IMG/VR virus record: IMGVR_UViG_3300037137_001341
Coordinates: 32,001 to 96,000 of that record
DNA: 64,000 nt
Strand: one strand, 5' to 3'
Source of the DNA: a virus
Part shown: piece by piece, positions 15,470 through 55,844 of the stretch
Numbering within the stretch: position 1 is the first letter of the stretch
Layout: each line of letters begins with the position of its first letter
The notes under the pieces: generated by a model
Told to the model about the DNA's origin: nothing
Database searches by the model: none
Seen by the model: the letters and a program-made list of their open reading frames with translations, nothing else
Translations under genes and position numbers: made by a program

Positions 15470-15900
15470 GGCAGCGCCCGAAGGTACTGCCGGAAGGCCC
15501 GGTTCGAGAGGGCCGGGATGCCCAAGGCGTCGCTGCGCCGGCTCCGCACGAGCATTAGCATGTCCGCACCGGGCTCCCCCGTGACCATGTGCAGCGCGAG
15601 CGCGGCGATGAACGCCGAGCGGTTCCGTCCCATCTGGCAGGTCACGAGGACCCTCCGTCCTCTGCGCATGTCCCTCGCGACGGCCTCCGCGGCTGTCCAG
15701 GCGGTCATCAGGTCGTCTGCCGTCGGCTCCGACGAGTCATCGAACGGGCAGTGCCGCACCCGCACGCCCGGGAAGGCCGCTGCCGGCGGCTGGTACTCCT
15801 CGGCCGCGAAGACGATGACGTCGAAGCGCCCCACGTAGTCCCCCGGCGGGGGCGCGGCGCCCACGTAGAGCCCTTCCACGATGCGGCTGGCGTCTGCCAC
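15466..15900 (-). CDS. Dual-specificity/tyrosine phosphatase
   Basis: LVTCQMGRNRS (CX5R), PFDD general-acid loop. Confidence 0.88.
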   Translation of the reverse strand: MADASRIVEGLYVGAAPPPGDYVGRFDVIVFAAEEYQPPAAAFPGVRVRHCPFDDSSEPTADDLMTAWTAAEAVARDMRRGRRVLVTCQMGRNRSAFIAALALHMVTGEPGADMLMLVRSRRSDALGIPALSNRAFRQYLRALP

Positions 15901-15961
15901 GGGCGGCAGAGTACCCGAAAGCCGCTGGGACCGAAATAGGCTGGTCTGTTATCGTAACGGG

Positions 15962-32342: not shown

Positions 32343-33038
32343 CTACGCCGCGGCAGCCGGCCGCGTCGCGTAGAAGGCGCCGAGACCGAGCACGGCCCCG
32401 ATGCCCACGCCGGCCGCCATGCCCATCGGCTTGGTCTTCTTCCACAGGACGGCACCGAGGAGCCCCGCGACCGCGCCGCCACCGGCGTACATCGCGAGGT
32501 TCTTCTTGTCGTCATCCGTGAGCGGAGCCGCCGAGCCGAGACCGCGCAGATGACCACTGTGAACGACGGGGCGACGGGGAGGCCGCCGGCGCACCCTGCC
32601 GAGCCCGGCCGTAGCGCCTGCGTTGTACCAGGCGATCAGCGCCTTCTGGAAGCCGGCGTTCATGTGTGACCAGTCGTAGTCCGACAGAGACTCTGTCACA
32701 TCGACGAGCATCATGTCGCACGAGTCCAGCTGGTTGAACCGACCGAGCCCGTGCGCCTGACCCTTGTACGCAGACACGGTACACACGGAGATCCACCGTC
32801 CTGTATCCGTGTCGGTGTACCCACCGGTGTACCAGTGGTAGAGCGTGCTGCGGAATGTGTCCGGCAGCGCTTCCCACTCGCTGTCGTCCATGGCTTCCAC
32901 TGCCGCGACGAGAGCCGCGTCCGTCCCGTCGCTCTTGTTGTACTGGCCGACGCCGCTGAAGTACTCGCCCATGCCCTTCATCCCGGGCGGCTTGTACGCG
33001 AAAAACTCACCCATTCCTGCTGGTGCTTGCTTGTACAT
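32343..33038 (-). CDS. Membrane protein with multiple G-h-G tags
   Basis: GMGEFF, GMGEYF, GVGQ, GLG x3; two C-terminal TM. Confidence 0.75.
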   Translation of the reverse strand: MYKQAPAGMGEFFAYKPPGMKGMGEYFSGVGQYNKSDGTDAALVAAVEAMDDSEWEALPDTFRSTLYHWYTGGYTDTDTGRWISVCTVSAYKGQAHGLGRFNQLDSCDMMLVDVTESLSDYDWSHMNAGFQKALIAWYNAGATAGLGRVRRRPPRRPVVHSGHLRGLGSAAPLTDDDKKNLAMYAGGGAVAGLLGAVLWKKTKPMGMAAGVGIGAVLGLGAFYATRPAAAA

Positions 33039-33043
33039 TGGAG

Positions 33044-34093
33044 TTACCTCTTCCTTCGTAGAACGAGTGCGATCCCGAGCAGCGCCACAGCGCCGAGCCC
33101 ATACATCGCCATGGTGCTCATCATCGGCGCGCTCGCGCCCCCGGTGTCCACCCGCGTGCCCTTCGTCTTGTCGGCCAGCGACAAGTACGGAGGCAGCACC
33201 GGGCCGCCGCCGCCAGCGAACCAGGCGTACAGGTTCGGCATCGACTTCTTCACGAAGTCCGGGCCCCCGCCCGCAGTGGTCGGAGCCGCCATGAGCCCGA
33301 CCATGATCCCGATCCCAGTGGCGTTCGGGTACGTCTGCGCTCCCGCGGACGCGCTCACGGTCTTGCCGCTCATCACCGGGGACGCGGATACGATGTACTG
33401 CCAGAGCACGCTCGCCGCCGGCTCCCAGATCCCGCTGGTGTAGAAGTCGGGCGTGTAGGTCGCCTGCGCCGTCGTACTGAGCGCGAAGCCGCCGCTCGAC
33501 AGCGCCATCAGCGACTTCACCTCGGCGAGCGTTGCCGCGTCACCGAGATCGAGCGTTATCCCGGTCACCGCAGCCGGCGCGCCTGCGCCGAGGCTTCCGT
33601 CATTGAACGCCCGCAGCGGGCCGAACGTGTTCATGCCCTCGTAGTGCGGCCCAAGGATCCCCTGGTTGTAGACCGAGATGGGCGTGCCACCGGCCTCGTC
33701 CGTATCTCCGAGCGAGCCATCGTTGTATGACCGCAGCGGTCCCGGCATCGAGGCGTCTGCCGGTGAGCCACCGACCACGCCGTCGGCGTACGCGAAGAGC
33801 GATCCAGCGGAGGCGTCACCGAGCCCGAGCGATCCGTCCGAGTACGCGAACAGCGGGCCAGGCATCGCGGACTCGTCCGGCGAGCCGCCGAACACGCCGT
33901 CCGAGTACGCCTGCAACGGCCCCTGCCCGAGCCCGAGCGATCCGTCCGAGTACGCGAACAACGGGCCAGGCATCTCGGCGCTTGCCGCCGAGCCCCCGAC
34001 GACACCGTCGGCATATGCCTGCAGCGGGCCCTGACCCAAGCCGCCGGCGCCCTGGGTGATCTTGGTGCTTCCGAAATATGCGCCTAGCGGCAT
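33044..34093 (-). CDS. Repeat-containing C-anchored membrane protein
   Basis: GPLxAYxDG repeats; TM + RRKR; GAGGAACACATG start. Confidence 0.78.
   Translation of the reverse strand: MPLGAYFGSTKITQGAGGLGQGPLQAYADGVVGGSAASAEMPGPLFAYSDGSLGLGQGPLQAYSDGVFGGSPDESAMPGPLFAYSDGSLGLGDASAGSLFAYADGVVGGSPADASMPGPLRSYNDGSLGDTDEAGGTPISVYNQGILGPHYEGMNTFGPLRAFNDGSLGAGAPAAVTGITLDLGDAATLAEVKSLMALSSGGFALSTTAQATYTPDFYTSGIWEPAASVLWQYIVSASPVMSGKTVSASAGAQTYPNATGIGIMVGLMAAPTTAGGGPDFVKKSMPNLYAWFAGGGGPVLPPYLSLADKTKGTRVDTGGASAPMMSTMAMYGLGAVALLGIALVLRRKR
33590..34035 (-). repeat. Intragenic tandem repeat, ~108-bp unit
   Basis: gagcccgagcgatccgtccgagtacgcgaaca at 33821 and 33929. Confidence 0.75.
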
Positions 34094-34573: not shown

Positions 34574-35491
34574 TCACTTCTTGTACTTCCGGTACATGTA
34601 GTAGCCGCCGCCACCCACCGCGAGCAGCGCAAGGATCCCCCACATCGCCGACGTCGAGGACGCCTGCGTCGTTGGCTTGTGGAACATCGGGATGCAGTTG
34701 CTGCCGACCAGATGTGATCCGGGCGGGCAAGTCGTCGCTACTGTCAGCGCCACGCAGTTGCCGTTCGCGTCCCACACGTACCCTGGTGAGCAGTCGCCCG
34801 CGCAGACGCTCGTGCCGTCCGTGAAGTGGAACGGTGACCTGCCCGCTGGACACGTCACGCAGTTCCCGTTCGCGTCCCAGGCATGCTCCGGGTCACAGAT
34901 CCCCGCGCACTGCCCCTTGAAGAGCGCGTGCCCCGGAGGACACGACGTCACCGCGCACGGCGGCGCCGCCATCAGCTTCGCCCACCAAGCGGGATCGTGT
35001 TGGCCGAGCCAGCAGAGGACGTTCCAGTCCTTGTTGTCCCCACCTCCCGCGTTGCAGTAGTCCCGCAGCTTCGCGAACTCCGGCGTGATGCACGCAGCAG
35101 GAGCCGGGAGTCCGGCGCCGGGACAGAACGGGAGCTTCGAGAGCGCGATGGCGGTCCACTGCGCCGCCGTGTCATTCACGCAGTCGAAGTCCGGGTTCAG
35201 CACGCGGCCATTGGCGCAGTTGGCGATAACGCCGGCCGTGTACGTGTCGATGCACGTCGGCGTCGGGCAGATGTTCGAGTCGGCAACAGAACACGGCGGA
35301 AAGGCGGCCAGCCTCCCACTCATCTTGTACTCGACGCCGAGCCCGGTCAGCGTTCCGCTTCTCTGAGCCGCACAGAGCCCGACCGCCTCGTCATGCTCCG
35401 CCTGCGAGACACACGTCGGCTCCGAGAGGGAGCGGATCCCGCTGGGGGTCATCTCCAGGAGGCCGAGACCTGTCATCGATCGGTACGTCAT
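34574..35491 (-). CDS. Cys-rich C-anchored membrane protein
   Basis: MTGLG, LTGLG; CxxGxxWDANGNC modules; TM + RKYKK. Confidence 0.78.
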   Translation of the reverse strand: MTYRSMTGLGLLEMTPSGIRSLSEPTCVSQAEHDEAVGLCAAQRSGTLTGLGVEYKMSGRLAAFPPCSVADSNICPTPTCIDTYTAGVIANCANGRVLNPDFDCVNDTAAQWTAIALSKLPFCPGAGLPAPAACITPEFAKLRDYCNAGGGDNKDWNVLCWLGQHDPAWWAKLMAAPPCAVTSCPPGHALFKGQCAGICDPEHAWDANGNCVTCPAGRSPFHFTDGTSVCAGDCSPGYVWDANGNCVALTVATTCPPGSHLVGSNCIPMFHKPTTQASSTSAMWGILALLAVGGGGYYMYRKYKK

Positions 35492-35495
35492 CGGA

Positions 35496-36050
35496 TCACT
35501 TCTTCCTGAGCATCATGTACCCGAGGCCGAGCACAGCGACGGCACCGAGCCCGTACAGAGCCATGGTGGTCGTGCTCATGCCGGCCTGCGTGTCTCCGCC
35601 GCCGCCGGCGGAGCAGTGCGGAGTCTCCTGCGCCTTGTCCCAGTACGTCGGCGACTTGCTGGCGGCCCAGCAGAGCGAGTTCATCCCGGCCGTCGGCCCG
35701 TCGAAGAACGGGTACTTGTCGCAGTACGCGAGCCCCTGCAGATACGTTTCGTCGAGGCACGCCGGCATGCCACCGGCGAACGCCGTGTCGAAGCTCGGGC
35801 ACCCTGGAAGGGCGTCCACGCCGCACTGATTCAGGTGAGCGCAGAGCGCGCTCCACACGGCGGCGCTCACGCCGGGGGGAGCCGGCTCCTTGGCCTTACA
35901 TTCGGCGATGGCCGCGATCCAAGTCTGATCGAGGCACGTGTTCCCGCCCTCCGTGGGGATCCCCTGACCGCACGGCAGAGCGGTCGCGTACTGCATGGCC
36001 TGCTCAAGCGTGGGGGGCGGTTCGGCTCCTATGCTGCTGTTTCGGTACAT
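35496..36050 (-). CDS. Cys-rich C-anchored membrane protein
   Basis: SIGAE; YC..NSLCW domain shared with neighbours; TM + RKK. Confidence 0.78.
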   Translation of the reverse strand: MYRNSSIGAEPPPTLEQAMQYATALPCGQGIPTEGGNTCLDQTWIAAIAECKAKEPAPPGVSAAVWSALCAHLNQCGVDALPGCPSFDTAFAGGMPACLDETYLQGLAYCDKYPFFDGPTAGMNSLCWAASKSPTYWDKAQETPHCSAGGGGDTQAGMSTTTMALYGLGAVAVLGLGYMMLRKK

Positions 36051-36056
36051 GGCGCA

Positions 36057-37097
36057 TCACTTCTTTCTCATCACCATGTAGCCGACACCGAGTGCGACGA
36101 GCGCGCCGATCCCGAACATAGCCATGGTCGTGCTGCTCATTCCGGCTTGCTGCGTGCCGCCACCGCCACCGCCGGCGGACGGCGGGACACATGCGCCGGT
36201 GACCGGATCACGGGTGTACCCGTAGCCGTATACGGAGCAGTCGTCGGCCGGCAGGATGTGCTTGGTCGTGTCGGCCTGCAGCACGCAGGTACCGCTGGAG
36301 TCCCTGATGTAGCCGGTGTCGCACGGGGTCGGCAGCTTCACGTCTGCAACGCAGTCGCTTCCGACCAGATGGAAGCCCGCGCTGCACGTCTTGGGTGGTG
36401 GCGGCGTCGGCGCCGCTACAGGGATGCAGTTGCCGTTCGCGTCCCACACGTACCCTGGTGAGCAGTCGCCGACGCACTGGCCCTTGAACATCGAGTGCCC
36501 AGGAGGGCACGTCGTCGGGGCGGCGCCCGCAGTTGCCACGCAGTTGCCGTTCGCGTCCCAGACATATCCCGGTGAGCAGTCGCCGACGCACACGAACTTC
36601 TTCGACGGCAGCATGAACATCGAGTGCCCAGGAGCGGCAACCGGAACGTCCATGAACTGCTGGTACAGATCCGGGAAGCGATGCAGCGTCCAGCAAGCCG
36701 CGTCGAGACTAGGGTTCCGTGGGTAATTGACCGGAAACGTCTTGCAGTAGTTGATCTCGTTCCGAAAGACGGTCCCGACTTCCGACGTATCGGTGCATCC
36801 CGGAATCATGGCGATCCATGGCGCCGTGTCGATGTCCGAGCAGCCCAGCTTCTTGAACATGCCGCAGGTTCCGAGTGCAGCACGCGCATCCTGGAACTGC
36901 TGGTCGGTCAAGTTGGCCGGCTTCTGGCCGGTGTAGAACAGCGACAGGATCTGGATCATCTGCGCGCTGAGACACGGCGCGTTAGCCAAGTCCGCGGGGC
37001 AGCCGTTCACTGCGATCCCGTAGAGCAGGTACGCGACCTGATCCGGCGTCAGCGGGGCCTCGGCGGCCCCGAGTCCTCTCATCTCTCTGTACGTCAT
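36057..37097 (-). CDS. Cys-rich C-anchored membrane protein
   Basis: MTYREMRGLGA start; repeated CVGDCSPGYVWDANGNC; TM + RKK. Confidence 0.78.
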   Translation of the reverse strand: MTYREMRGLGAAEAPLTPDQVAYLLYGIAVNGCPADLANAPCLSAQMIQILSLFYTGQKPANLTDQQFQDARAALGTCGMFKKLGCSDIDTAPWIAMIPGCTDTSEVGTVFRNEINYCKTFPVNYPRNPSLDAACWTLHRFPDLYQQFMDVPVAAPGHSMFMLPSKKFVCVGDCSPGYVWDANGNCVATAGAAPTTCPPGHSMFKGQCVGDCSPGYVWDANGNCIPVAAPTPPPPKTCSAGFHLVGSDCVADVKLPTPCDTGYIRDSSGTCVLQADTTKHILPADDCSVYGYGYTRDPVTGACVPPSAGGGGGGTQQAGMSSTTMAMFGIGALVALGVGYMVMRKK

Positions 37098-37930
37098 CGC
37101 CGACGGTTCCTTGCCAGCTGCCGCGAGGCAGGCGTGTAGGAGCCGCCGATCCTGGGCGCCCGCTTCGACCAGAGCATGTACCCCAGCACCGCGGCTCCGA
37201 GGCCCACGGCGATGGGCAAGCTCAGGTTCGTCTTGGTGTCCACGGAAGGCGTCGTCGGGACGAGCTTGATCGGCGGCGCGGCAGGCGGCCCCGTCGGCAC
37301 CGTGACCGGCGTCGCGATCGTCATCTGCGCCGTCAGCGCATCCTGGAAGGACGAGGTCGCCGGGGTCGAGCGCGTCGTCGAGCCCTGCGACGGGATCTGC
37401 GCCGCGAAGACGAGTGCACCACCGACGGCGGCGGCTCTCGGCGCGATGGTGAGCGTGTGCTTCGGCAGCTGGGACATGTCGATGCGCTCGCCCCAGTGGA
37501 GGAACGCAATCGTCGGGACGGGCTTCGCGTCGTCCTGCCGGTAGACGGCCTGCGTCTCGTACGCCTTGTACGCCGTCCCCTTCCACATTGCGTCGATCGA
37601 CGCCTGCGTCATCGGGCCCTTCGTGATGATCGCTACGAAGGGCAGCGGGGAGCCGTAGGACAGCTGCATGGCCGCAGCGATCTGGTCGTCGTTCAGGCCC
37701 CAGAGCACGATGTTCGTGTCCGGGTTCGTGATCTCCTCCCAGGTCGTGTCGCTCGTGCGCGACGCCCACGGCGTGTACGTGCCGAGCACCTGGAGGTCCA
37801 GCGCCGTGGTGAGTTCCGAGAAGATGCTCTGCGCCGGCATGTCCCCGAGGGACGTGCCCGGGGGCGCCGGGATCATGCGCAGCGAGTCCCAGGCCGCGCC
37901 CGAGCCGCCATGCTCCATGTAGGAGGACAT
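37094..37930 (-). CDS. C-anchored membrane protein
   Basis: SLGD; TM; ends LARNRRR. Confidence 0.7.
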   Translation of the reverse strand: MSSYMEHGGSGAAWDSLRMIPAPPGTSLGDMPAQSIFSELTTALDLQVLGTYTPWASRTSDTTWEEITNPDTNIVLWGLNDDQIAAAMQLSYGSPLPFVAIITKGPMTQASIDAMWKGTAYKAYETQAVYRQDDAKPVPTIAFLHWGERIDMSQLPKHTLTIAPRAAAVGGALVFAAQIPSQGSTTRSTPATSSFQDALTAQMTIATPVTVPTGPPAAPPIKLVPTTPSVDTKTNLSLPIAVGLGAAVLGYMLWSKRAPRIGGSYTPASRQLARNRRR

Positions 37931-38084: not shown

Positions 38085-38372
38085 TCACGGCTTGTACCTC
38101 GAAGGGTTGAGCCGCACGGCGGTATCCCATGCTCCGTCCCTGGAGATCAGGGCAGTCTCCGCCGCCTCCACATCTCCGGCGTCCTCCAGGTAAACGCGCA
38201 TGTCCTCGAAGACACCAGACACGATCTCGAAGAGCTTTGATGGATCTCCGTGCAGGAGGTCCAGCGCCTCCATGACTCGCTCGTGCGCCATGTCCGACTT
38301 CGTCGGTGGACCACGACGGCTTTTCTTGCCGTGAATCCCAGCCGCCGGAAGCATCTTCATGTTCCTTTTCAT
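38085..38372 (-). CDS. Small hypothetical protein
   Basis: GGAGG RBS, ATGA coupling; starts MKRN. Confidence 0.55.
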   Translation of the reverse strand: MKRNMKMLPAAGIHGKKSRRGPPTKSDMAHERVMEALDLLHGDPSKLFEIVSGVFEDMRVYLEDAGDVEAAETALISRDGAWDTAVRLNPSRYKP

Positions 38373-39277
38373 CGTGGCCCTCCACCGAGCGACCCTGGAC
38401 CACCGCTCGCGTTCGTCAGGGGCTTCATGCACTCCATCAAGGAGTCGAGGTGAAGCTCCGGGATCAGCATCCCCGCGATGTCGTACTCGATGAACGCGAT
38501 CGGCGACGGGATGGGCTGGAAGATCACGCACCGGACCTGCACGGTCTGGTTCGACCTCGCGTAAAGCGTGAACGGCACCGACAAGGGACCGTACCGCGTC
38601 GGCCGCTGCGGCAAGAGCGACGTACCGACGCCGGCCGCGCTCGCGAAGCTCGACGCCCCGGCGATGTTGAACGTGGACCCCTGCGCCGCTCCGACCGCTG
38701 CCGCGAGCGCGGGCGGAAGCTCACCCCCTCCGATCGCTGGCGTCGTGAAGGCCTGCGTGAACGTCTGGATGGGCACGGGGTCCAGCTGGTACAGCAGGTT
38801 CCCCGGCTGGTGCTGGTCCACGCTGATCTGGAAGCCCATGATCGAGGAGAAGCGCCGGGCTTCGACAGGCACGGTGTCGCCAGCGTCCACACCCGAGAAC
38901 CGGTAGATGTCCGGGCGGAGATCGAACAGGAGGAGCGCGAACGTGCTCGGCACCTTGAAGGCACCAAGCTCGAACGTGAACGGCGTCTCCGGGCTGACGT
39001 CGTCGAGGAACATGCCCTCCTCGGGCAGCCGCCGGTACAGCTGCTCGAACGGCACCACCGACGGGTGCACCATCAGGGAGCCCAGGAAGCCACCCGCAAG
39101 CTGCACCCGATCCGCGTTGCACCCGAGGGATGTGCCCTCGCCAGGGTACGGCGCCGGGGGCGGAGCATCGCCCAGCCCCGGTCGCAGGTACTGCGCGGGG
39201 CGCGCGGGCGGCTGGACCGAAGGAAGGCCCAGCCCCGCGATCTGCCTTGCTGAAAGGTGCAGAGGGGGCTGGTTCAT
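38369..39277 (-). CDS. Beta-rich protein, candidate jelly-roll minor capsid/penton
   Basis: Alternating hydrophobic strands; N-terminal IAGLG/PGLGD; terminal strand EYDIAG. Confidence 0.5.
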   Translation of the reverse strand: MNQPPLHLSARQIAGLGLPSVQPPARPAQYLRPGLGDAPPPAPYPGEGTSLGCNADRVQLAGGFLGSLMVHPSVVPFEQLYRRLPEEGMFLDDVSPETPFTFELGAFKVPSTFALLLFDLRPDIYRFSGVDAGDTVPVEARRFSSIMGFQISVDQHQPGNLLYQLDPVPIQTFTQAFTTPAIGGGELPPALAAAVGAAQGSTFNIAGASSFASAAGVGTSLLPQRPTRYGPLSVPFTLYARSNQTVQVRCVIFQPIPSPIAFIEYDIAGMLIPELHLDSLMECMKPLTNASGGPGSLGGGPR

Positions 39278-39290
39278 GCGTGCCTCCGCT

Positions 39291-40274
39291 TCAGGTCAGA
39301 CGGACCGGACCAGGCGGCTGGATGATCTTGAACCCGTGCAGCCCGATGAAGAGGAGGCCATCGGGCAGGCGCGTGATCGGATCGACCGTCGCCGTCTGGT
39401 TCAGCGGATCCACGACGCCCTCATGGACGTCGTACTGGCTGCCCAGGAACGGGTAGAGCCCGCCGGCCGCGAAGCCGGAGGCGTTGCCCGCGGGCGGGTT
39501 GTTCACGTGCGTCGGCTGCACCTTCCACTGGACCGTCTCGCCACGCTCGAAGAAGTCGAGCGCGCCCAGCTGGAAGGGGCTGTTGATGCTGTCCGAGTAG
39601 AACGCCGAGGGCACCGGGTCGTTCGACCGCGGGTAGCCGGCGCCCTGGTTCAGCATCGTGATGACCGCGTCGAACTCCATCGAGCGGAAGGACGAGTGGT
39701 TCGAGGGGCTCGCGTAGATCGGCGCGCCCGTGCCCGGCGCCGCGATGCCGGTGATCGGCTGGTAGCCCGCCGCGCCGTCGTTCAAGTCCCAGGCCGAGTG
39801 GATCGGCCGGAAGCGACCGAACGAACGTCCCTGGAACGCCGCCTGCGCCTGCGACACAGGATCGCGGGCCGCGAACTGGAAGGCCGACTGGAAGGCCGCG
39901 AACCGCGCAACGGCCACGAACGGGCCGTCCTGCGAGATCGTCTTCGTGCCCTGCTGCTCCGAGATCGTGTTCGACCCGATGGGGATCGTCACGAGGAGGT
40001 CGAACGGAACCCGCCGGCCCGGGATCGACTCGATGTACCGGACGTGATCGTTCACGTTGCCGTTACCGAAGCCGTTCCCGTTGCTCTTGCCCTCGACGCC
40101 CTGCAAGGCGTTCGCGAGGTTCTGCAAGTCGCGCGTGTTGCGCTCCAGCGCCTGACGAAGCAGCGCGGTGTCGCCCTGGTTCGCCTTCGCCATGTCCGCG
40201 GCCTGGCGCGCCTGGCCCGCCGCGTACCCAGCCTGCTGCTGCAGCTGAGCGAGGATCTGATTGAGGTCTGCCAC
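39291..40274 (-). CDS. Candidate jelly-roll capsid protein with N-terminal coiled coil
   Basis: GGAGG RBS before GTG; ISQDGPFV, SNDPVP, PFQL, terminal FIGLHG strand. Confidence 0.55.
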   Translation of the reverse strand: MADLNQILAQLQQQAGYAAGQARQAADMAKANQGDTALLRQALERNTRDLQNLANALQGVEGKSNGNGFGNGNVNDHVRYIESIPGRRVPFDLLVTIPIGSNTISEQQGTKTISQDGPFVAVARFAAFQSAFQFAARDPVSQAQAAFQGRSFGRFRPIHSAWDLNDGAAGYQPITGIAAPGTGAPIYASPSNHSSFRSMEFDAVITMLNQGAGYPRSNDPVPSAFYSDSINSPFQLGALDFFERGETVQWKVQPTHVNNPPAGNASGFAAGGLYPFLGSQYDVHEGVVDPLNQTATVDPITRLPDGLLFIGLHGFKIIQPPGPVRLT

Positions 40275-40449
40275 TGTCTTGTGCCTCCGGTTAGGAGTAC
40301 CGGACGGGAACCCAGGGTACATGCCCCAAGCGTCCCAGTCCGTGCCATCGGTCAGATTCAGGCCCGGCCCCAGGTCGCCCCAGGGCCGGTCCGCGCTCAC
40401 TGAGACGTCCAGTGACTCACAGGCAAGTGCCCGGAATCACTGGGCTTTC

Positions 40450-41229
40450 TCACTGAACGTCGCGCGCGAAGAGACCGTCGAAGGTGAATTGGATCACCTT
40501 GTTGATGCCGTCCACGGCGTTCAGGTTGCTCTGGAGGGACAGGTAGTTCCGTCCCTGGGGACCGTTGGTCATCCCCGCGAGCACGCCGTTGCCGCCGTCC
40601 GGCAGCGGCAGGATCTGCGCCGTGCAAAGCACGTTCTGCCGTGGTGGCAGGAGAATCGCGCGGGCGAGGCGCAAAATCGCAGTGTGGTCCGGCGTCCCGT
40701 TGTTGAAGTGGATCAGATCCGAGGATCCGCCGAGGTCGCCCCAGAGGCCGCCGCCGTCCGGGAAGTACTTCGTGGCCATGTTCGAGATCGAGTTCTTCTC
40801 GCCCGTCCCATAGCTCCAGTGCAACTGCTCTTCGGCTTGCCAGTAAAGCCGATAGACGTCTTCGATCGAGCCCGGGTACTGCCCCGCGCCGGGCCCACCG
40901 GGGTTCGCGAAGAAGTTCGCCGCGCCGTCCTGGGAGAAGTCGCCGTTCTGCTTGATGTTGCCGTTCGCAGGACCGGTCGCCCGGATCTGCGGGTTGCGGA
41001 ACCACGTGAACACGCGCAGGGCGAGCGTCACGTGCGACTGGTCGGACGGCAGGGTCGAACCGTTCTGGAGGTTCGTCAGCGCGTTCGGGTCGTCGATGCG
41101 CTGCTGGTTCGAGAACAGCTTCTGCGTCGCGTTGACGGGGTTGATGTTGCCACCGAGCCCGCTGGTGCGGATCAGGGTGTCGTAGAAGGGCTGGTGCACA
41201 CGCTCGCGGACGTTCGTCAGCTTTGCCAT
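40450..41229 (-). CDS. Candidate major capsid protein (single jelly-roll type)
   Basis: AGGAGA RBS, flanking structured spacers; QPFYDT..LF..TNL..G.LP..; terminal FTFDG strand; no TM. Confidence 0.6.
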   Translation of the reverse strand: MAKLTNVRERVHQPFYDTLIRTSGLGGNINPVNATQKLFSNQQRIDDPNALTNLQNGSTLPSDQSHVTLALRVFTWFRNPQIRATGPANGNIKQNGDFSQDGAANFFANPGGPGAGQYPGSIEDVYRLYWQAEEQLHWSYGTGEKNSISNMATKYFPDGGGLWGDLGGSSDLIHFNNGTPDHTAILRLARAILLPPRQNVLCTAQILPLPDGGNGVLAGMTNGPQGRNYLSLQSNLNAVDGINKVIQFTFDGLFARDVQ

Positions 41230-41384: not shown

Positions 41385-43898
41385 TCAGCCGCCGCTGAGC
41401 ACCCCGTTCCCACCAGGACCCTGGAGGATCCCCGCGGGAAGCTCGGACTCCGTGTAGTGCGCGTCCGCAGAGGTCGTCCCGGCCCAGAGAGGACCGTTCG
41501 GGATCCACTGCGACTGCGTCGGCACGGTGCTCTCCGCGAACCCGCCGTTGCTCGGCGAGGCCGTGAAGAACTCACCGAGCCCCGCAGCAGCCTGCCCAGC
41601 GACCGCCTGCGTCGCGCCCTGACCCAGTCCAGCAGCCGACTCGGCGAGATCCAGGATCTGATCCAGGTTCGCGTCGGGACGGATGCCGTCGTCGATGGGA
41701 AGCTGCCCCATGTGCGAACGACCGGGCATGAGGGCGAGCGGGCCGGCCTTCTCGTAGAATCCCACTCCCTGGGTGCCGGGACCAGCGAAGTACTCGCCCA
41801 CGCCCGAGGCGGGCTTGAAGTACTCGCCCACGCCGGCGTGCGCCTGCGTGAACTGCGGTGCCTGCCCGATCGATGCGTACTGGGGCATGATCGAGTGAGC
41901 GTTCTTTGCGATGCCGAGGCCTCGCAGGTGACGCGGCTGGTAGCGACCCGAACCGCGCAGCGCGGATGCCCGGCTGTTCGAGTAGCCGTCGAGGTACGAG
42001 AGCACCTGCGGCTGGTTGGCCGCAGTGAGTGCCGTCCGAACGAAGGACTCCAGGAAGGAGACCATCATACCGGCCGACACCGCCATCCTGGTCTCGACCT
42101 TGACGGCCTTGACCATGGACATGCCCGCGATGCCCACGCCACCGATGACGAGGCCCGTGATGGGCTTCTGCCAGGTCGCGATGATCGACTGCTTGCCGTT
42201 GGAATCGACGACCGCCATGCCCGCGAACGTGGTGCCGTCAGCCGACGTCAGCGCCTTCACTGCCGCGCCCGTGAGGGCTCGGTGCGCGAAGAAGCCGATG
42301 AGGATGAGGCCGCCCGTCTTGAGCAGCGCCGTCATGTCCCCGGCGAACCCGTTCTTGAGGTACCGGTTCGCGTGAAGCCGACGACCGAGCCCGTGACGGC
42401 GATGACGCCTGCTGTGGCGCCGACGCCGGCTGTTCTCCTCGTAGTGCCTGTTCCGCACGAGGTACAGGCCGCGCTTCAGACGGCGGACCTTCCGACGACC
42501 GATGCGACGCGGCACTCCACGCACGCGACGGGACTTGCTCTTGCGCTTCGCGACCTTGCGCTTGCCGCGCTTCTTGCCGCCCTTGCCCTTGGCCTTGCGC
42601 GTACGCCACGCCTTCCGCGCAGCGGCTGCACGCTTGGTGCTCTTGCGCTTCCCCTTGCGCTTCGCGACCTTGCGCTTGCCGCGCTTCTTGCCGCCCTTGC
42701 CCTTGGCCTTGCGTGTACGCCACGCCTTCCGCGCAGCGGCTGCACGCTTGGTGCTCTTGCGCTTCCCGCTCTTGCGGGACTTCGCCTTCTTCTTCTTCTT
42801 TCTCGCCTTGGCCATTCTCTTCGCTCCCGCGTTGGGTGTGAACGCATCCATGCCTCGCTCGACACGAGCGGCAGCAGCCTTGCGGCGCTTCGCGATCCGA
42901 TCGCGCGCCTTCTTGTACGCCTCGACGTTCTTGTAGTCCTTGGCGCTGATCGCCCCCGCGATTGCCCACTCGGGGATCTTGCGGAGCCGCTTGCCCTTGC
43001 GGGTCATGTAGCTCAGCCCCCGCGCGCCCCGGCGCGGGTTGTAGAGGCTCGCCCGACGGAACGGACCGTAGGCCACGCGCGCCCGGTGCCCGCTCTTGGA
43101 GGTCTTCGACTGCTTCGGCCACTTGGACTTCACGGCCTTGCGGTGCCGCTTCGCCACGTTCGCCGGCAGCATCCGCTTCGCCTCGCGGATCTTCTCTTTC
43201 TCGGCCCGGATCTTCAGCCGCTCGATGGCCTTGTTCTCGCGCTGCACCGCCTTCTCGGCCTGCGTCTTCGCGCGCTCCATCGCCTTCCCCGCCGCCTTGA
43301 TCCGCTTCTCGGCCGCCTTGATCCGCTTCTCGGCCGCCTTCACGGTCTTCGACGCGCGCTTGCGCTTGGCCGGAGTCGACGTGGCCGCCGCACCGCGACG
43401 CCCCGACGCCTCCTGCCAGTGCTGCCACGGAGTCTTGCGTGGAGAAGATGAGGAGGAAGCAGCAGCGCGACCCTTCCCGAAGGTGGCCTCGTGAGAGGCC
43501 TCGTAGGCCTCCCGCTGCGCCTTGGTCTGCCGCTTGGACAGATTGCGCCGGAGCCCGCGCTTCCGCGTGCGACCGCCACCTGCTGCGCGACGGTTTTCCT
43601 GCATGCGCCGCACGAAGGCGGCGCGGTGAACTCCGTTCGATGACATTGCCATGCTTCCGCTCCTGTTGGCCATGAGGCGCCGAGCGCGAGCAACGCGCTC
43701 GGCGCGGGACAGACCGTGGACTGCGCTGCGAGCGGAGTGGGCACGCGCATAGGCCCCGGGGCCATTCACCGCCGAGAGCGTCGTGACGCCCATGGGGTTC
43801 GGCCGGTAGCTGCCGGCGTTCGGCCGCGCCATGCGGTACGCGCCCACATCCGCCTTGCGGATGGGGAACGCGCGACCGATTGCTTTGCGACTTGCCAC
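41385..43898 (-). CDS. 837-aa tripartite protein: histone-H1/protamine-like basic region, TM region, G-h-G repeat tail
   Basis: K/R-rich N-terminal ~515 aa; hydrophobic helices; GVGEYF/GLGEFF repeats. Confidence 0.8.
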   Translation of the reverse strand: MASRKAIGRAFPIRKADVGAYRMARPNAGSYRPNPMGVTTLSAVNGPGAYARAHSARSAVHGLSRAERVARARRLMANRSGSMAMSSNGVHRAAFVRRMQENRRAAGGGRTRKRGLRRNLSKRQTKAQREAYEASHEATFGKGRAAASSSSSPRKTPWQHWQEASGRRGAAATSTPAKRKRASKTVKAAEKRIKAAEKRIKAAGKAMERAKTQAEKAVQRENKAIERLKIRAEKEKIREAKRMLPANVAKRHRKAVKSKWPKQSKTSKSGHRARVAYGPFRRASLYNPRRGARGLSYMTRKGKRLRKIPEWAIAGAISAKDYKNVEAYKKARDRIAKRRKAAAARVERGMDAFTPNAGAKRMAKARKKKKKAKSRKSGKRKSTKRAAAARKAWRTRKAKGKGGKKRGKRKVAKRKGKRKSTKRAAAARKAWRTRKAKGKGGKKRGKRKVAKRKSKSRRVRGVPRRIGRRKVRRLKRGLYLVRNRHYEENSRRRRHSRRHRRHGLGRRLHANRYLKNGFAGDMTALLKTGGLILIGFFAHRALTGAAVKALTSADGTTFAGMAVVDSNGKQSIIATWQKPITGLVIGGVGIAGMSMVKAVKVETRMAVSAGMMVSFLESFVRTALTAANQPQVLSYLDGYSNSRASALRGSGRYQPRHLRGLGIAKNAHSIMPQYASIGQAPQFTQAHAGVGEYFKPASGVGEYFAGPGTQGVGFYEKAGPLALMPGRSHMGQLPIDDGIRPDANLDQILDLAESAAGLGQGATQAVAGQAAAGLGEFFTASPSNGGFAESTVPTQSQWIPNGPLWAGTTSADAHYTESELPAGILQGPGGNGVLSGG
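42540..42767 (-). repeat. Near-perfect 114-bp tandem duplication (38 aa)
   Basis: GKRKSTKRAAAARKAWRTRKAKGKGGKKRGKRKVAKRK twice. Confidence 0.9.
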
Positions 43899-43967
43899 TC
43901 TTCTCGACTCTTCTCGGCGGATCTGTGATCCGGCGAGGCGTCGGGAAGGCGCCCTGCGAACTCTTGA

Positions 43968-43996
43968 AAGCTACCGAGAGGATGTCCCTACGTCAA
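43968..43996 (-). promoter_or_regulatory. Sigma70-type promoter for core/capsid operon
   Basis: TTGACG-17-TAGCTT. Confidence 0.65.
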
Positions 43997-44045
43997 GGAA
44001 AAGCGTTTCTCCTGGGTTTTCCCCGAGAGTATGCTCCAGCTGGCC

Positions 44046-44345
44046 ATGCTCGCGCCCCCACACGGACCGACGGCTGCGCGCCCCCTGCATCTGGCGTACC
44101 CGGAGGTTTTTGCTGGACTCGGAGAGAGCCAAAATCCCGCCGGAACCGCGATGCACGCGGTGTCCTGGTCCACAGGCTCGATCGTCATCGACACCATGAT
44201 CGGCGGCGCGGCCGGCTACGCCCTCTCTCCGTCCCCCGGGGACCGATGGAAGTGGGCCCTCGGGGGGGGAGCAGCGACCGGGCTCGCCGGGGTGTTCGGG
44301 TTGCTCGCCACGGCTGGATTCAGCTACGTGCGGCGACGTCGATGA
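44046..44345 (+). CDS. Small membrane protein with GLG tag
   Basis: FAGLGE; TM hairpin similar to 54159..54554; RRRR end. Confidence 0.68.
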   Translation: MLAPPHGPTAARPLHLAYPEVFAGLGESQNPAGTAMHAVSWSTGSIVIDTMIGGAAGYALSPSPGDRWKWALGGGAATGLAGVFGLLATAGFSYVRRRR

Positions 44346-45409
44346 ACATTCTGTACGGCGTGTGCGGCGACGGGATGGGGCACGCGATGCGCTCTGCGGT
44401 GCTGGCCCATCACCTGGAGAACGCCGGGCACGAGATCACGTTCGTGTCGAACGACGGGGCGCTCAAGTACTTGCGTCGGCGAACGAAGCGGCAGCCGATC
44501 GAGGTCATCGGGATGCACTCCAAGATCACGCGCAACGTCGTCTCTCCATTCGGCACGCTCGTGGCCAACGCGCTCCGCCAAAGCAAGGGCGTGTGGGGGA
44601 ATATGCTGGCGTCCATGGAGATGGTGACGAAGCTGCCGGACGTCGTCATCACGGACTTCGAGCCGACGACGGCGCACTACGCGCTCACGATGTCGAAGCC
44701 GCTCATCGCCGTGGACAACGTCCACTTCCTGAACCACTGCACGCACCCCGCATCGTTGATCAACAGCGATTACTCCGCAGCCGCCTTCATGTACGAGGTC
44801 TGCGAGAACCTCATCCCGACGGCGCGGCGGTATCTCGTTACGACCTTCGCACAAGCCCCGGTCTTGCGGCCCACCACCACGCTGCATCTTCCGATCCTTC
44901 GAGAAGAGATCCTCTCTGCCAAAGATTCCGCATCATGTGGCGAGCACGTCGTGGCCTACTTCAACGACAAGGCGGACCACGCGATGCTCGCCCGCGTGTT
45001 CCAGAAGGCCAGCGCGCCGATCTTTCTCTACGGGAAGGCTTCGCAGAAACACCGGAAACAGGAAGGCAACGTCACGTTCTGCCCGTTCTCGGACGAGGCG
45101 TTCATTCAGGACGTGGCTTCCTCGCGCGCCGTCATCGGCGGCTCCGGGTTCACGTTTATGACCGAGGCGATCTTCCTCGGGAAACCGATGTTTGCGCTTC
45201 CGTACGAGATGCAGTTCGAGCAGATCCTGAACGCGAACTACCTGGAGGCGCTAGGATACGGGGAGCGCTGCAGGCACATGACGCCAGAATCCCTCCGCTC
45301 GTTCCTGGACAACGTCCCCCGCTACACGGAGAAGCTCCAGGAGTTTCGTCACGACGGGAACGCTGACCTGTTCGCGTCCGTTGAACGAGCGCTGCAGGAG
45401 GTTGCGTGA
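44342..45409 (+). CDS. GT-B glycosyltransferase (MJ1255/GT28-like)
   Basis: MNILYGVCGDGMGHAMRS, ITDFEP, GFTFMTEAIFLGKP, QFEQILNA. Confidence 0.88.
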   Translation: MNILYGVCGDGMGHAMRSAVLAHHLENAGHEITFVSNDGALKYLRRRTKRQPIEVIGMHSKITRNVVSPFGTLVANALRQSKGVWGNMLASMEMVTKLPDVVITDFEPTTAHYALTMSKPLIAVDNVHFLNHCTHPASLINSDYSAAAFMYEVCENLIPTARRYLVTTFAQAPVLRPTTTLHLPILREEILSAKDSASCGEHVVAYFNDKADHAMLARVFQKASAPIFLYGKASQKHRKQEGNVTFCPFSDEAFIQDVASSRAVIGGSGFTFMTEAIFLGKPMFALPYEMQFEQILNANYLEALGYGERCRHMTPESLRSFLDNVPRYTEKLQEFRHDGNADLFASVERALQEVA

Positions 45410-46137
45410 CCCGCATCGCGCACCTGACGGACATGCACCTGGACGGCGGGTACGAGCGCCGCGCTCGACTCGATAAAGCCATCGCGCATGCCGCGCAGCT
45501 GGGATCGCAGCATCTGCTTCTCACCGGCGATCTCACCGAGTCAGGAAGCCTCAGAGAGTTCGAGGACATCGCTGACGCGCTTCACGGCTGGCCCACCAAC
45601 GCGGTTACGATCGTGCCAGGCAATCACGACGGGCACCCCGCTCGCTGGCGCGAGGCCCTCAACGGTCCGCTGCAGGAGTTCCGACTCACCAGCACCCCCG
45701 GGATGGTCACCGATGTTGGGGACGCCGTGATCGTACCGGTCTCGACACAGATCGGCAGCCGGGCTCCGTTGTTCTGGGCACTCGGGCATGTGAGCGCAGC
45801 GCAGGTCCGCATGCTGCACGCCGCCGCCGATGCCACAGCCGTCAGAAGGAAGGCGATGATCGTGGCGATGCACCACGGGCCGCAACTGAATCTCCTGCAG
45901 CCTCTCGACGGCCTCACGAACCGGCACGCCATCGGCGCGCTCGTGAAGAAGCATCCTCACGTGTGGCTTTGCTGCGGACATGACCATCGCGCCCTGGACC
46001 TGGGGCATGTGTTCGTGGCCGCCAGCGTGGCGGGACATGACGACCCTCTGCGCGTCTATGACGTTCGCGGGCCGCAGCTGGCGCCGGTCTACAAGAGCGG
46101 GAAGAGTGGCTCGTACTTCGACTGGCTAGGTCTGTAG
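45406..46137 (+). CDS. Calcineurin-like metallophosphoesterase (Icc/CpdA-like)
   Basis: DMH, TGDL, GNHD, MHH, GHDH. Confidence 0.88.
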   Translation: MTRIAHLTDMHLDGGYERRARLDKAIAHAAQLGSQHLLLTGDLTESGSLREFEDIADALHGWPTNAVTIVPGNHDGHPARWREALNGPLQEFRLTSTPGMVTDVGDAVIVPVSTQIGSRAPLFWALGHVSAAQVRMLHAAADATAVRRKAMIVAMHHGPQLNLLQPLDGLTNRHAIGALVKKHPHVWLCCGHDHRALDLGHVFVAASVAGHDDPLRVYDVRGPQLAPVYKSGKSGSYFDWLGL

Positions 46138-54561: not shown

Positions 54562-55257
54562 TCACTTCTTCATCAGGGTCGCGGCCACGATGCCGACCGC
54601 GACGCCGACGATGGCGAATCCCGCGAAGATGCCGAACTTGGAGCCGGAATCCGTCGCCGGAGCATCGGCACCGAGCCCGTTCACTGGCCACGCCTCCTCG
54701 TTCGGGATCCAGGTCCCGCCGGGATCGGGATGCGTGACGTTCTGCGGACTCACGCCGGGAGGAAGCTCCCAGAGCAGCTGCCTCTCGCGCACGGTGTCCA
54801 GCTGGCTCTGATCGATCGCGACCGCGCCGCCGGGCACGTACATGACGGGCTGGCCAGTGGTCGCGTCGATCACCTCCGACGGCTGGTAGTCGATCGAGTT
54901 CACCAAGTAACCCGGCATCGAAGCGTGGTCCGCGAACACGCCGTAATCCGGGTGGATGTTCCCCTGCGTGCCGTGCGGATCGAACACGCCATTGCCTTGT
55001 ACATCGTCCGCTGCTGCGAGCGTGTTTAGCTCGTTCGCGTAATCCTTGATTCCGATGTCTGCGGTCATGCCGTTGTCTCCCAGGCCCGCGATGTTGCGCC
55101 CACGCGCGCCGCGGTACATGTCGTACGAAGGGTTCATGCCGCTCGGACGCATGTCCGGCGGCCCGATCTCGTCGATGCTCGGAAGGTCGCCGCCGAACAT
55201 CGGCTGGCTCGCGTACACCGGGTACGGGGGACGCAGGGCTCGAAGGACGTTGCTCAT
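54562..55257 (-). CDS. C-anchored membrane protein
   Basis: IAGLGD, VNGLGA; TM + KK. Confidence 0.75.
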   Translation of the reverse strand: MSNVLRALRPPYPVYASQPMFGGDLPSIDEIGPPDMRPSGMNPSYDMYRGARGRNIAGLGDNGMTADIGIKDYANELNTLAAADDVQGNGVFDPHGTQGNIHPDYGVFADHASMPGYLVNSIDYQPSEVIDATTGQPVMYVPGGAVAIDQSQLDTVRERQLLWELPPGVSPQNVTHPDPGGTWIPNEEAWPVNGLGADAPATDSGSKFGIFAGFAIVGVAVGIVAATLMKK

Positions 55258-55844
55258 GTGATGCTCCTTGGCGCTCCCGGATCTTCATCGAGGCTCACCG
55301 TGTAAAAAGTCGTCACACGATCGAGCATGCCGCGCTCGTCCGTGCCCCCGACGGGGTCACAAACTACCCATTCCCCGCTTCGCGGTTCCTTCACGCGCGT
55401 GAACACGTGGCTGTACTGGCCGGCCTCACCGAAGCCGACGACCACGAACTCGGCGACGCGGCCAAGCTGCAACGCCATCGTCGCGATGATCGTCGCCATG
55501 TCATCGCAATCACCGATCGCACTTCCGTGCGCGGCTACTTCCTCGACGAGCCTCTGTGCGTCCTTCACGAGTTCGGTGTGCAGGGGGTCGTTGACGTAAT
55601 GAACGCGCTCCGTCACCCAGTACCGCACCGCCAGGATCTCGCCGAGGTAGTCCTTCGGCTGCACCTGTCGAACGATCTGCTCGACCATGCTCCGCACGAG
55701 CATGCTCTTCTCGCCCCGTTCGCCATGCGTCGCGCTCACCATGGCCCGGAGTGTGTCCGGGTGACCATGAAAAGCGCTCAATGAGTGTGGCGGGTTAGCG
55801 GAGAGCAAGGGTATCCCGAGCCGGGGGTCGGGAGCGCCCTGCAC
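55254..55844 (-). CDS. Transglutaminase-fold cysteine protease candidate
   Basis: YVNDP, GDCDD, SHVF, WVVCDP (Cys-His-Asp triad). Confidence 0.82.
   Translation of the reverse strand: MQGAPDPRLGIPLLSANPPHSLSAFHGHPDTLRAMVSATHGERGEKSMLVRSMVEQIVRQVQPKDYLGEILAVRYWVTERVHYVNDPLHTELVKDAQRLVEEVAAHGSAIGDCDDMATIIATMALQLGRVAEFVVVGFGEAGQYSHVFTRVKEPRSGEWVVCDPVGGTDERGMLDRVTTFYTVSLDEDPGAPRSIT

Follow-up and report, generated by a model that had tools for sequence, protein, structure and literature searches.

The DNA studied here is a 64,000-nucleotide stretch (the window), bases 32001-96000 of the 116,237-bp IMG/VR virus record IMGVR_UViG_3300037137_001341, which is linear, has a G+C content of 66% and is 85% complete according to CheckV. 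An open reading frame (ORF) at window positions 41385-43898 on the minus strand encodes a protein of 837 amino acids (aa), which represents a new protein family with an unusual, coherent architecture from an undescribed virus lineage. Its strongly basic half is followed by hydrophobic helices and then by a tail that repeats the motifs GVGEYF and GLGEFF. The protein is probably a membrane-anchored, genome-condensing core protein, and both a link to the capsid and proteolytic processing are plausible. The reading that we tentatively favour goes one step further, in that the tail would bind shell proteins and the protein would couple DNA, membrane and shell. A previous sequence-only reading, which had placed the three elements correctly and had proposed a core polyprotein that condenses the genome and tethers it through the membrane to the shell, is partly supported by the results below.

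The 837-aa ORF has a third-codon-position G+C fraction (GC3) of 0.85, the level typical of real genes in this record. Its database copy (P0001) begins at M23. The residues right behind the GTG codon at 43898 (GRAFPIR.ADVG.YR; ..KAIGRAFPIRKADVGAYR..) are conserved in relatives, and the long GTG-start form is therefore the likely product. An antisense shadow ORF of 664 aa (41457-43451, plus strand) overlies the basic region.

Residues 1-515 contain 34.6% Lys and Arg (K+R) and 4.7% Asp and Glu (D+E), with a net charge of +154, and K+R reaches 50% in aa 401-515. No other protein of the genome is strongly basic: the 837-aa protein has a net charge of +153 and the runner-up +32. A tandem duplication noticed earlier is present at 42534-42647 and 42648-42761, where two 114-nt copies that are 97% identical encode a 38-aa repeat, and three 21-nt heptad repeats lie at 43279-43341. 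Across 91 homologues the basic half varies from 150 to 521 aa in length, with a K+R fraction of 0.38 and a median net charge of +151. The basic runs have a median identity of only 18-37% to the query (90 homologues) and carry indels and duplications. Because charge is kept while sequence drifts, this half is expected to behave as a bulk polycation. The proposed likeness to histone H1 and protamines holds for composition, which is of the Lys/Arg-rich, DNA-neutralising type, but not for any relationship in Pfam, the PDB or fold: neither a winged-helix Linker_histone domain nor a protamine family was matched in Pfam, and the folded part of the basic half (aa 259-350) has no fold match. As a rough check, a genome of 116-140 kb carries 232,000-280,000 phosphate charges, of which several hundred copies at +150 would neutralise at least one third.

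The basic half is not of low complexity throughout, as it contains a conserved N-terminal peptide and a folded domain. Within the N-terminal peptide (aa 1-60, 43719-43898, minus strand), the motif [LIVMA]NGxG occurs in 49 of the 56 homologues that cover this region. The same peptide holds an N-P-x-G-V-T element and [VI]-N-G-[RP]-G; its Asn-Pro we take to recall the autocleaving N↓P sites of FlhB/YscU and reovirus mu1. The folded part is a confidently predicted basic beta/alpha domain and is probably a DNA-binding module. When aa 250-350 were modelled alone with AlphaFold2, the predicted local distance difference test score (pLDDT) was 93 and the predicted template modelling score (pTM) 0.78. 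The domain has a median identity of 39% in 90 homologues and is confined to the family of the 837-aa protein in a phmmer search of 1.84 billion representatives. No fold match was found for aa 250-350 with Foldseek against the PDB (E>1), in the VIA-wide search (Z<=3.8, helical part only) or in BFVD (E>0.5). Cren7 and IHF/HU appeared in these fold searches as noise-level rows and were discounted as kin of the domain. The AlphaFold2 model of the whole protein, built from an 80-sequence alignment, has a mean pLDDT of 62.5 and two confident blocks. The first block (aa ~185-345) comprises a long heptad helix, short strands at 264-307 and helices at 310-347, and the second (aa 520-630) is a three-helix bundle.

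This bundle is a probable membrane anchor, and it would be embedded in the membrane with a buried polar contact. Helices are predicted at aa 517-550, 572-595 and 601-626 (24-34 residues each), with a 5-residue turn between the second and the third. Their cores of 18-21 residues contain a median of 1, 0 and 0 charged residues in the 91 homologues, whereas 40% of the residues of the N-terminal half are charged. The sole charge of core 1 is an invariant R/K540, which adjoins H539, and helix 3 has a conserved S614 and Q/E617. The flanking charges are +8 before helix 1, +1 in the 24 aa of loop 1, +1 in the 7 aa of loop 2 and 0 in the 20 residues past helix 3. Together with the helix count, they favour an arrangement with the N-terminus inside, three passes and the C-terminus outside, which would put the basic half and the GEYF tail on opposite faces of the membrane. 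At least 14 neighbouring proteins (30833-56330, minus strand) consist of an N-terminal domain without signal peptide, a single C-terminal transmembrane segment and a short basic end (RRRR, RKK or KKRK), and in the other GEYF carriers that were read a transmembrane segment parts the motifs from a basic end or loop. Since proteins of this module keep basic ends and G-h-G-tagged domains across the membrane from each other, they support the placement of the basic half and the tail on opposite sides, which we regard as fairly likely.

The tail is the best-conserved region of the protein, with median identities to the query (90 homologues) of 67% in the C-terminal end, 65% in the GEYF zone and 62% in the acidic helix. 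Residues 640-837 nevertheless have a pLDDT below 50, except for a short helix (745-755) and a hairpin (779-790). A region that is highly conserved yet predicted to be disordered suits linear motifs that bind a partner. Two copies of GVGEYF (aa 689 and 699) and one of GLGEFF (aa 773) are present. The sequence-only reading had also seen the motif in a second protein, and this observation was borne out: a 231-aa protein (32343-33038, minus strand) has GMGEFF and GMGEYF at its N-terminus, and these two proteins account for all of the five matches to G-x-G-[ED]-[YFW]-[YFIL] in six frames of the 64 kb. A scan for the DNA pattern was extended to five relatives of 111-140 kb, four of them 100% and one 96% complete according to CheckV and three with terminal repeats. 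The pattern occurs three to six times per genome, and 23 of the 24 matches fall within two clusters. Three matches per genome lie at the tail of the 837-aa homologue, and three genomes have another two to three matches 7-8 kb downstream; one relative has a single extra match elsewhere and one has the three tail matches only. A reversed-pattern control gave 0 matches in the same relatives. The clustering and the empty control show that the recurrence of GEYF is not due to chance. Three of the downstream GEYF ORFs and the extra one, when read, all encode small proteins made of a soluble part, one to four GEYF motifs, GLG, one or more transmembrane segments and K/R. A search of the literature on the GEYF motif and on large tailless membrane phages found nothing relevant.

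About 91 clusters (at the 90% identity level) of 460-830 aa share the transmembrane-plus-tail region, with E-values down to 1e-154. All of these homologue clusters are metagenomic, and none has a Pfam domain or an informative name. Their genomic context was read via IMG/VR and GTDB loci; a first scan of genome contigs had returned no relative. Seven IMG/VR loci have a fixed gene order, in which genes for proteins of 850, 414 and 121 aa are followed by the 837-aa gene and then by genes for proteins of 259, 369, 302 and 298 aa. In all seven, one uninterrupted frame (818-905 aa) encodes the homologue, and the N-terminal peptide is shared. The position just ahead of a candidate major capsid protein gene, seen earlier, is borne out in that three candidate shell genes follow, and the order is kept in 7/7 related loci. 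The three genes directly downstream share 43-81% identity across the loci, and the 259-aa protein has a mean column identity of 85%. The best-conserved genes form an operon with the 837-aa gene at its head, which lies within a ~29-kb block encoding membrane and spike-like proteins. A search for shorter forms retrieved 56 clusters, about 40 of which (284-412 aa) span most of the transmembrane-plus-tail region, the rest being smaller fragments. One short form lies on a contig like G002 (138 kb), whose frame stays open for 818 aa. Because all readable relatives (7/7) have one open frame, the short database forms are probably gene-calling artefacts, helped by the antisense shadow ORF.

Database searches placed the 837-aa protein in no known family. 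Scans of this protein and 30 neighbours against Pfam and PHROGs gave nothing for it or for the three downstream genes; at E<=0.1 in Pfam, the 837-aa protein has only a sub-threshold match to PT26-6P_helical and none to linker histones. Neither the single sequence nor the family profile matched the PDB by sequence, and the sequence profile of the 259-aa neighbour did not match it either. The ESM Atlas gave only unnamed clusters (below 0.9 and TM <0.3). With Foldseek, the whole model had nothing at E<1, and its best fold matches were generic coiled coils and helical membrane bundles (Z<=7), which are within noise and were rejected. Homology to adenovirus pVII, pX and pVI was found neither in sequence nor in fold (Pfam at E<=0.1, 0 matches of the family profile in the PDB, Foldseek).

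Two kinds of conserved short motifs may mark sites of processing. The linker between the helices and the tail has the consensus GYSNS.AY.LRG-(R)n-G-[MLV]-R-G-[LMF]-G-...-SIMP across the homologues; a strict h-x-G-h-(x)-G is present in 60 of the 91 and h-R-G-h-E in most others. At the motif level, this site agrees with the adenovirus-type precursor sites, which read (M/I/L)-X-G-X↓G or (M/I/L)-X-G-G↓X. In the 231-aa protein, HLRGLG, again behind an Arg-rich run, parts the soluble domain from the membrane segments. The linker site is joined straight to the tail motif in some homologues (RRGVRGMG-EFF), which makes GxGEYF an extended form of this G-h-G element. The pattern [LIVMF]-x-G-[LIVMF]-G occurs 25 times in the structural module (window 27000-66500), compared with 6.7±2.9 in shuffles, and it is not enriched in the rest of the 116-kb record (11 versus 9.2 expected). 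Many copies in the module (MTGLG, MAGLG, IAGLG and others) fall near the N-terminus of membrane or structural proteins, no further in than residue 15.

The second motif, Φ-x-x-N, is characteristic of the basic halves. The 91 homologues have 1,198 Asn residues in their basic halves, and in 69% of these cases position -3 is M, V, Y, F or L, compared with a background of 15% and with 7-23% at other offsets, and no excess is seen in the tail or in the other proteins of the virus. The consensus is Φ-[RTKV]-[RAKP]-N-[RGAKP]. Conserved instances are M85..N88, F353..N356, YEEN and Y513..N516, the last just before helix 1, and YEEN recurs within Arg runs of relatives. Φ-x-x-N may serve for cleavage or recognition, or it may cap helices. 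A candidate processing enzyme is encoded in the same module, namely a 196-aa Transglut_core protein with the signature GDCDD, SHVF and CDPV and a homologue of 65% identity in a relative (locus L008); it is the only papain-fold enzyme found in the record. The core-polyprotein part of the sequence-only reading gains from the sole strong polycation, its conserved charge and the conserved candidate cleavage motifs, but no adenain-type or Ulp1-type protease was found in the record.

Searches for packaging enzymes with the Pox_A32, FtsK_SpoIIIE and Terminase_6N profiles covered five records, four of them complete relatives, and no match to a packaging ATPase or terminase passed the cut-off. On the basis of these three profiles, the result is compatible with encapsidation driven by condensation. 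Sub-threshold P-loop matches were considered as a packaging ATPase and proved to be a DnaC-like loader and DnaB. In one complete relative (L037, G002:61800-65200), a DnaC/IstB-like AAA+ loader lies beside a DnaB helicase (E 1e-84); no orthologue of this loader was found in the present 85%-complete record.

In the favoured reading, the 837-aa protein would be a structural component inside the particle of a large virus (~110-140 kb) that contains a membrane and apparently lacks a tail. Its N-terminal ~515 residues would face the DNA and there bind the genome and neutralise its charge on that side of the viral membrane, and the three helices (528-547, 579-596 and 607-627) would cross this membrane. 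The C-terminal ~170 residues would exit on the opposite face as a disordered, conserved string of two to three GxGE[YF]F motifs, the acidic helix and the invariant C-terminal end. These motifs would adopt a fold upon binding a conserved partner, for which the candidate shell proteins encoded directly downstream are the likeliest choice, and one polypeptide would thereby couple genome condensation, membrane and shell assembly. The h-R-G-h-G linker site and the Φ-x-x-N sites may be cut at maturation, possibly by the transglutaminase-like cysteine enzyme of the module.

Several points weigh against this reading. The function of the protein is read throughout from sequence and predicted structure, we infer particle formation from the IMG/VR and CheckV classification and from gene content, and the products of 38369-41229 are shell proteins by candidacy. 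Membrane placement on opposite sides, as proposed in the sequence-only reading, has the charge-free helices and the flanking charges in its favour but meets two difficulties. The hydrophobicity of the helices is marginal, with Kyte-Doolittle peaks over 19 residues (KD19) of 1.44, 1.63 and 1.24, conserved polar residues inside them (H539-R540, S614, Q/E617), and simple Hessa sums of ~4-5 kcal/mol, compared with -0.9 to 2.5 for the C-terminal transmembrane anchors of neighbours; these sums are rough values. In addition, an Arg-rich run (+6) starts 20 residues past helix 3, at odds with the positive-inside rule if the C-terminus is outside. With respect to processing, neither adenain (PF00770, Peptidase_C5) nor an Ulp1-type, clan CE protease (PF02902) was matched in the 116-kb record (85% complete). 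Furthermore, ~10% of the Φ-x-x-N sites precede Pro and several of these Asn residues are predicted helix N-caps, so that a structural role of this motif is as possible as cleavage.

The Arg-rich run is also an argument for a related explanation, in which the protein is still a membrane-anchored, genome-condensing core protein but its tail makes no contact with the shell. The tail could then stay on the same DNA side, with two helices spanning the membrane, and the +6 linker past helix 3 would favour this cytoplasmic or DNA side under the positive-inside rule. Alternatively, the tail could have another partner, such as other membrane proteins or the processing enzyme, for which it would provide a released cofactor like adenovirus pVIc, or it could be a substrate array for cleavage or cross-linking at G-h↓G-E-Y-F. 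The fusion of site and motif in RRGVRGMG-EFF means that GEYF may be the primed side of h-x-G-h-G, and the conserved QAAAG ahead of the motifs and the transglutaminase-like enzyme encoded nearby also speak for this explanation. However, there are three helices and not two, they are bundled with a 5-residue turn, and all cores are charge-free family-wide; the first 20 residues past helix 3 are neutral, and in the other GEYF proteins read a transmembrane segment lies between the motifs and the basic end or loop. We consider a tail without shell contact somewhat unlikely.

Other explanations place the protein outside the particle core altogether or give it another role within the particle. It could be a non-structural anchor that holds replicating or segregating viral DNA at the host membrane, comparable to p16.7 of phage phi29, or a compactor or disruptor of the host nucleoid. 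DNA-binding composition joined with membrane helices would suit such a function, but the gene heads the best-conserved operon in the ~29-kb membrane and spike-like block, the replication genes (DnaB, loader) lie elsewhere in relatives, and replication organisers do not typically have a net charge of +150 or C-terminal motifs that are conserved yet disordered, which makes this explanation improbable. A role in genome delivery seems improbable to a similar degree. Here the protein would be bound to DNA in the particle, and its Gly-rich helices would insert into the host membrane at entry and form or line a DNA conduit; the helices, which are rich in Gly, marginal in hydrophobicity and conserved at several polar positions (H-R, S, Q/E), do resemble pore or channel segments, and the weak best structural matches of aa 509-631 are channel and stator helices (Z 6.3-7.0, noise level). 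These matches are within noise, a polycation of ~440-515 aa exceeds what a pilot protein needs, and GEYF motifs common to small membrane proteins would be left unexplained. Finally, the protein could act as a tape measure or scaffold, with its helices and disordered stretches determining how large the particle becomes, in the manner of PRD1 P30 or the tape-measure protein of PBCV-1; the long helices predicted at 184-242 and 357-398 and the conserved peptide at either end would agree with this. Such a role is highly improbable, as the length of the helical and basic region ranges from 150 to 521 aa among viruses of similar genome size and a ruler has no need of extreme charge.

The features of the 837-aa protein, the downstream candidate shell genes and the other carriers of its motifs are listed in Table 1.

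Table 1. Coordinates of the 837-aa gene, its parts and related genes in the window
Feature	Position	Strand	Evidence
Whole gene, GTG start at 43898: basic half, three hydrophobic helices, conserved tail	41385..43898	-	ORF, GC3, homologue alignment
Conserved N-terminal peptide, aa 1-60 (GRAFPIR.ADVG.YR ... NP.GVT ... [VI]NG[RP]GAY)	43719..43898	-	Median identity 53%
Basic helical region, aa 61-258, including heptad-repeat helix aa 184-242	43125..43718	-	Least conserved part, 18-37% identity
Conserved basic beta/alpha domain, aa 259-350 (VAYGPYRR..PRTGRR..SYMYR.K.GKLRKIP.WA)	42849..43124	-	AlphaFold2 pLDDT 93, pTM 0.78
Hyper-basic region predicted to be disordered, aa 351-516, with 114-bp duplication and YEEN/LVRN/YLKN motifs	42351..42848	-	Composition, repeats, AlphaFold2
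Predicted three-helix hydrophobic bundle, aa 517-630, cores 528-547, 579-596, 607-627	42009..42350	-	AlphaFold2 pLDDT ~90; median identity 36%
Linker, aa 631-668: GYSNS.AY.LRG, Arg-rich run, h-R-G-h-G site LRGLG (aa 658-662 = 41913-41927)	41895..42008	-	Candidate protease site; median identity 48%
GEYF zone, aa 669-720: SIMPRY.PVG..QAAAG.GEYF....G.GEYFAP.G.QGVG.YE.AGP	41739..41894	-	65% median identity; pLDDT <50
Acidic helix (IDDGIRPD.NLD.VLDLAESAAGLG), third GEFF motif, near-invariant C-terminal 47 aa ending ...PAGILQGPGGNGVLSGG	41388..41738	-	
Three best-conserved genes (259, 369, 302 aa), directly downstream; candidate shell proteins	38369..41229 (40450-41229, 39291-40400, 38369-39277)	-	Synteny
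Second GEYF protein, 231 aa: two N-terminal GEYF motifs, soluble domain, Arg-rich run and HLRGLG, two C-terminal hydrophobic segments	32343..33038	-	
196-aa transglutaminase-core (papain-like Cys-His-Asp) protein, same module; candidate processing enzyme	55254..55844	-	Transglut_core

Several further genes were noted around these features. A glycosyltransferase (Glyco_trans_1_3, E 2.5e-84) and a calcineurin-like phosphoesterase are encoded at window 43880-46137 (plus strand), between the 121-aa and 837-aa genes, and this insertion is seen only in the present genome and in one relative (L009). Three proteins on the minus strand (33044-34093, 35496-36050 and 36057-37769) have a near-identical end anchor, TMA[ML][YF]G[LI]GA[VL].. 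with RKK or RRKR. The latter two are Cys-rich, with 10 and 26 Cys, respectively, and their neighbour at 34574-35491 has 22 Cys and a different anchor; a weak TIL-domain match was obtained for the 570-aa Cys-rich protein. Several membrane-anchored neighbours start with M-Y-[RKH]-...-G-x-G, which resembles the SIMPRY..G opening of the tail of the 837-aa protein. A tyrosine-recombinase domain (Phage_integrase, aa ~490-560) lies in a 1451-aa protein (15881-20236, plus strand), whose size is unusual for an integrase. The GTDB contigs with relatives (L038-L041) belong to two Pirellulales metagenome-assembled genomes (MAGs), one Pseudomonadota MAG and one Pseudomonadales MAG, which is weak at best as a hint to the host, as the binning of viral contigs is unreliable.

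To our knowledge, the characterised bacterial viruses, whether tailed or membrane-containing, hold essentially naked DNA that is packed by an ATP-driven motor. Protein-condensed cores are found in eukaryotic viruses (adenovirus, African swine fever virus, baculovirus) and in a few archaeal viruses. If the favoured reading is true, a conserved membrane-anchored polycation heads the shell operon of a lineage with genomes of 110-140 kb, and since no packaging ATPase or terminase was detected alongside it, a different encapsidation strategy in prokaryotic viruses would be suggested. A single gene with separable DNA-, membrane- and partner-binding parts would then offer a handle on the coupling of genome, membrane and shell, and its short countable motifs (GxGEYF, h-R-G-h-G and Φ-x-x-N) are directly testable. 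If these motifs are protease sites, an adenovirus-like logic of maturation would extend to bacterial viruses. A broader proposal is that the core of this prokaryotic virus is built in adenovirus or asfarvirus style, from a membrane-spanning, protamine-like polyprotein without a recognisable motor, with GxGEYF recruiting the shell and a papain-fold enzyme cutting h-x-G-h↓G and perhaps Φ-x-x-N, as either an independent or an ancestral form of protease-driven maturation. We regard this larger scheme as unlikely.

Among known systems, adenovirus offers the closest parallel for a processed core. Its pVII, pre-mu (pX) and pVI are core and cement precursors matured by the adenovirus protease (AVP), and precursor peptides of pVI bind the shell protein (PMC4246237, PMC7998265). 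The type-2 site of AVP, for example IVGL↓G, follows the pattern (M/I/L)-X-G-X↓G, and the cut releases pVIc (PMC4246237). By analogy with pVII and mu, the 837-aa protein would be an Arg/Lys-rich protein that condenses double-stranded DNA (dsDNA) within a particle of icosahedral shape. As in adenovirus, a sequence matching the AVP site pattern (LRGLG/MRGLG) is conserved, here between the membrane helices and the tail, and the pattern is enriched in the structural module. In contrast to adenovirus, there is no homology in sequence or fold, no adenain was found in the record, and the host here is prokaryotic. Adenovirus also has no membrane, whereas the DNA-, membrane- and shell-binding roles would here share one transmembrane polypeptide.

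A membrane-bound core layer is known from African swine fever virus (ASFV), in which pp220 and the inner-envelope protein pEP84R form a membrane-targeted core-shell layer that bridges the inner membrane and the nucleoid and is needed for genome encapsidation; pp220 is matured by a cysteine protease at Gly-rich sites (PMC9910796). The 837-aa protein would, by analogy, form such a layer between membrane and nucleoid. It differs in that pp220 is myristoylated, is not a polycation and works with a separate transmembrane protein; no homology exists between them, and no Ulp1/C48-type protease was found here. Among prokaryotic viruses, SPV1 of the Portogloboviridae has a single jelly-roll outer shell, an internal membrane, a protein-condensed dsDNA core and proteins that span the gap between membrane and capsid (PMC8459092). 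The condensed core, internal membrane and gap-spanning proteins resemble the design proposed here. Unlike the present virus, SPV1 has a 20-kb circular genome and a hyperthermophilic archaeon as host, and its VP1 exists as a soluble protein of its own, which assembles into a nucleoprotein filament. Between the two, no similarity came to light.

Protamines, the C-terminal tails of histone H1 and baculovirus P6.9 are Lys/Arg-rich (35-50% K+R) and Ala-rich, conserve charge over sequence and carry tandem duplications. The likeness of the 837-aa protein to them is compositional only, and it adds a folded basic domain, membrane helices and an acidic, aromatic tail. In tectivirus PRD1, the small proteins P16 and P30 link the underside of the shell with the internal membrane, and PRD1 packages naked DNA by an ATPase and has no polycationic core protein. 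The 837-aa protein differs from P16 and P30 by the absence of homology and the presence of its polycationic half. Compared with all of these systems, what would be new here is that one conserved polypeptide of a large prokaryotic virus combines the three proposed roles and also has a family-specific basic domain and motifs.

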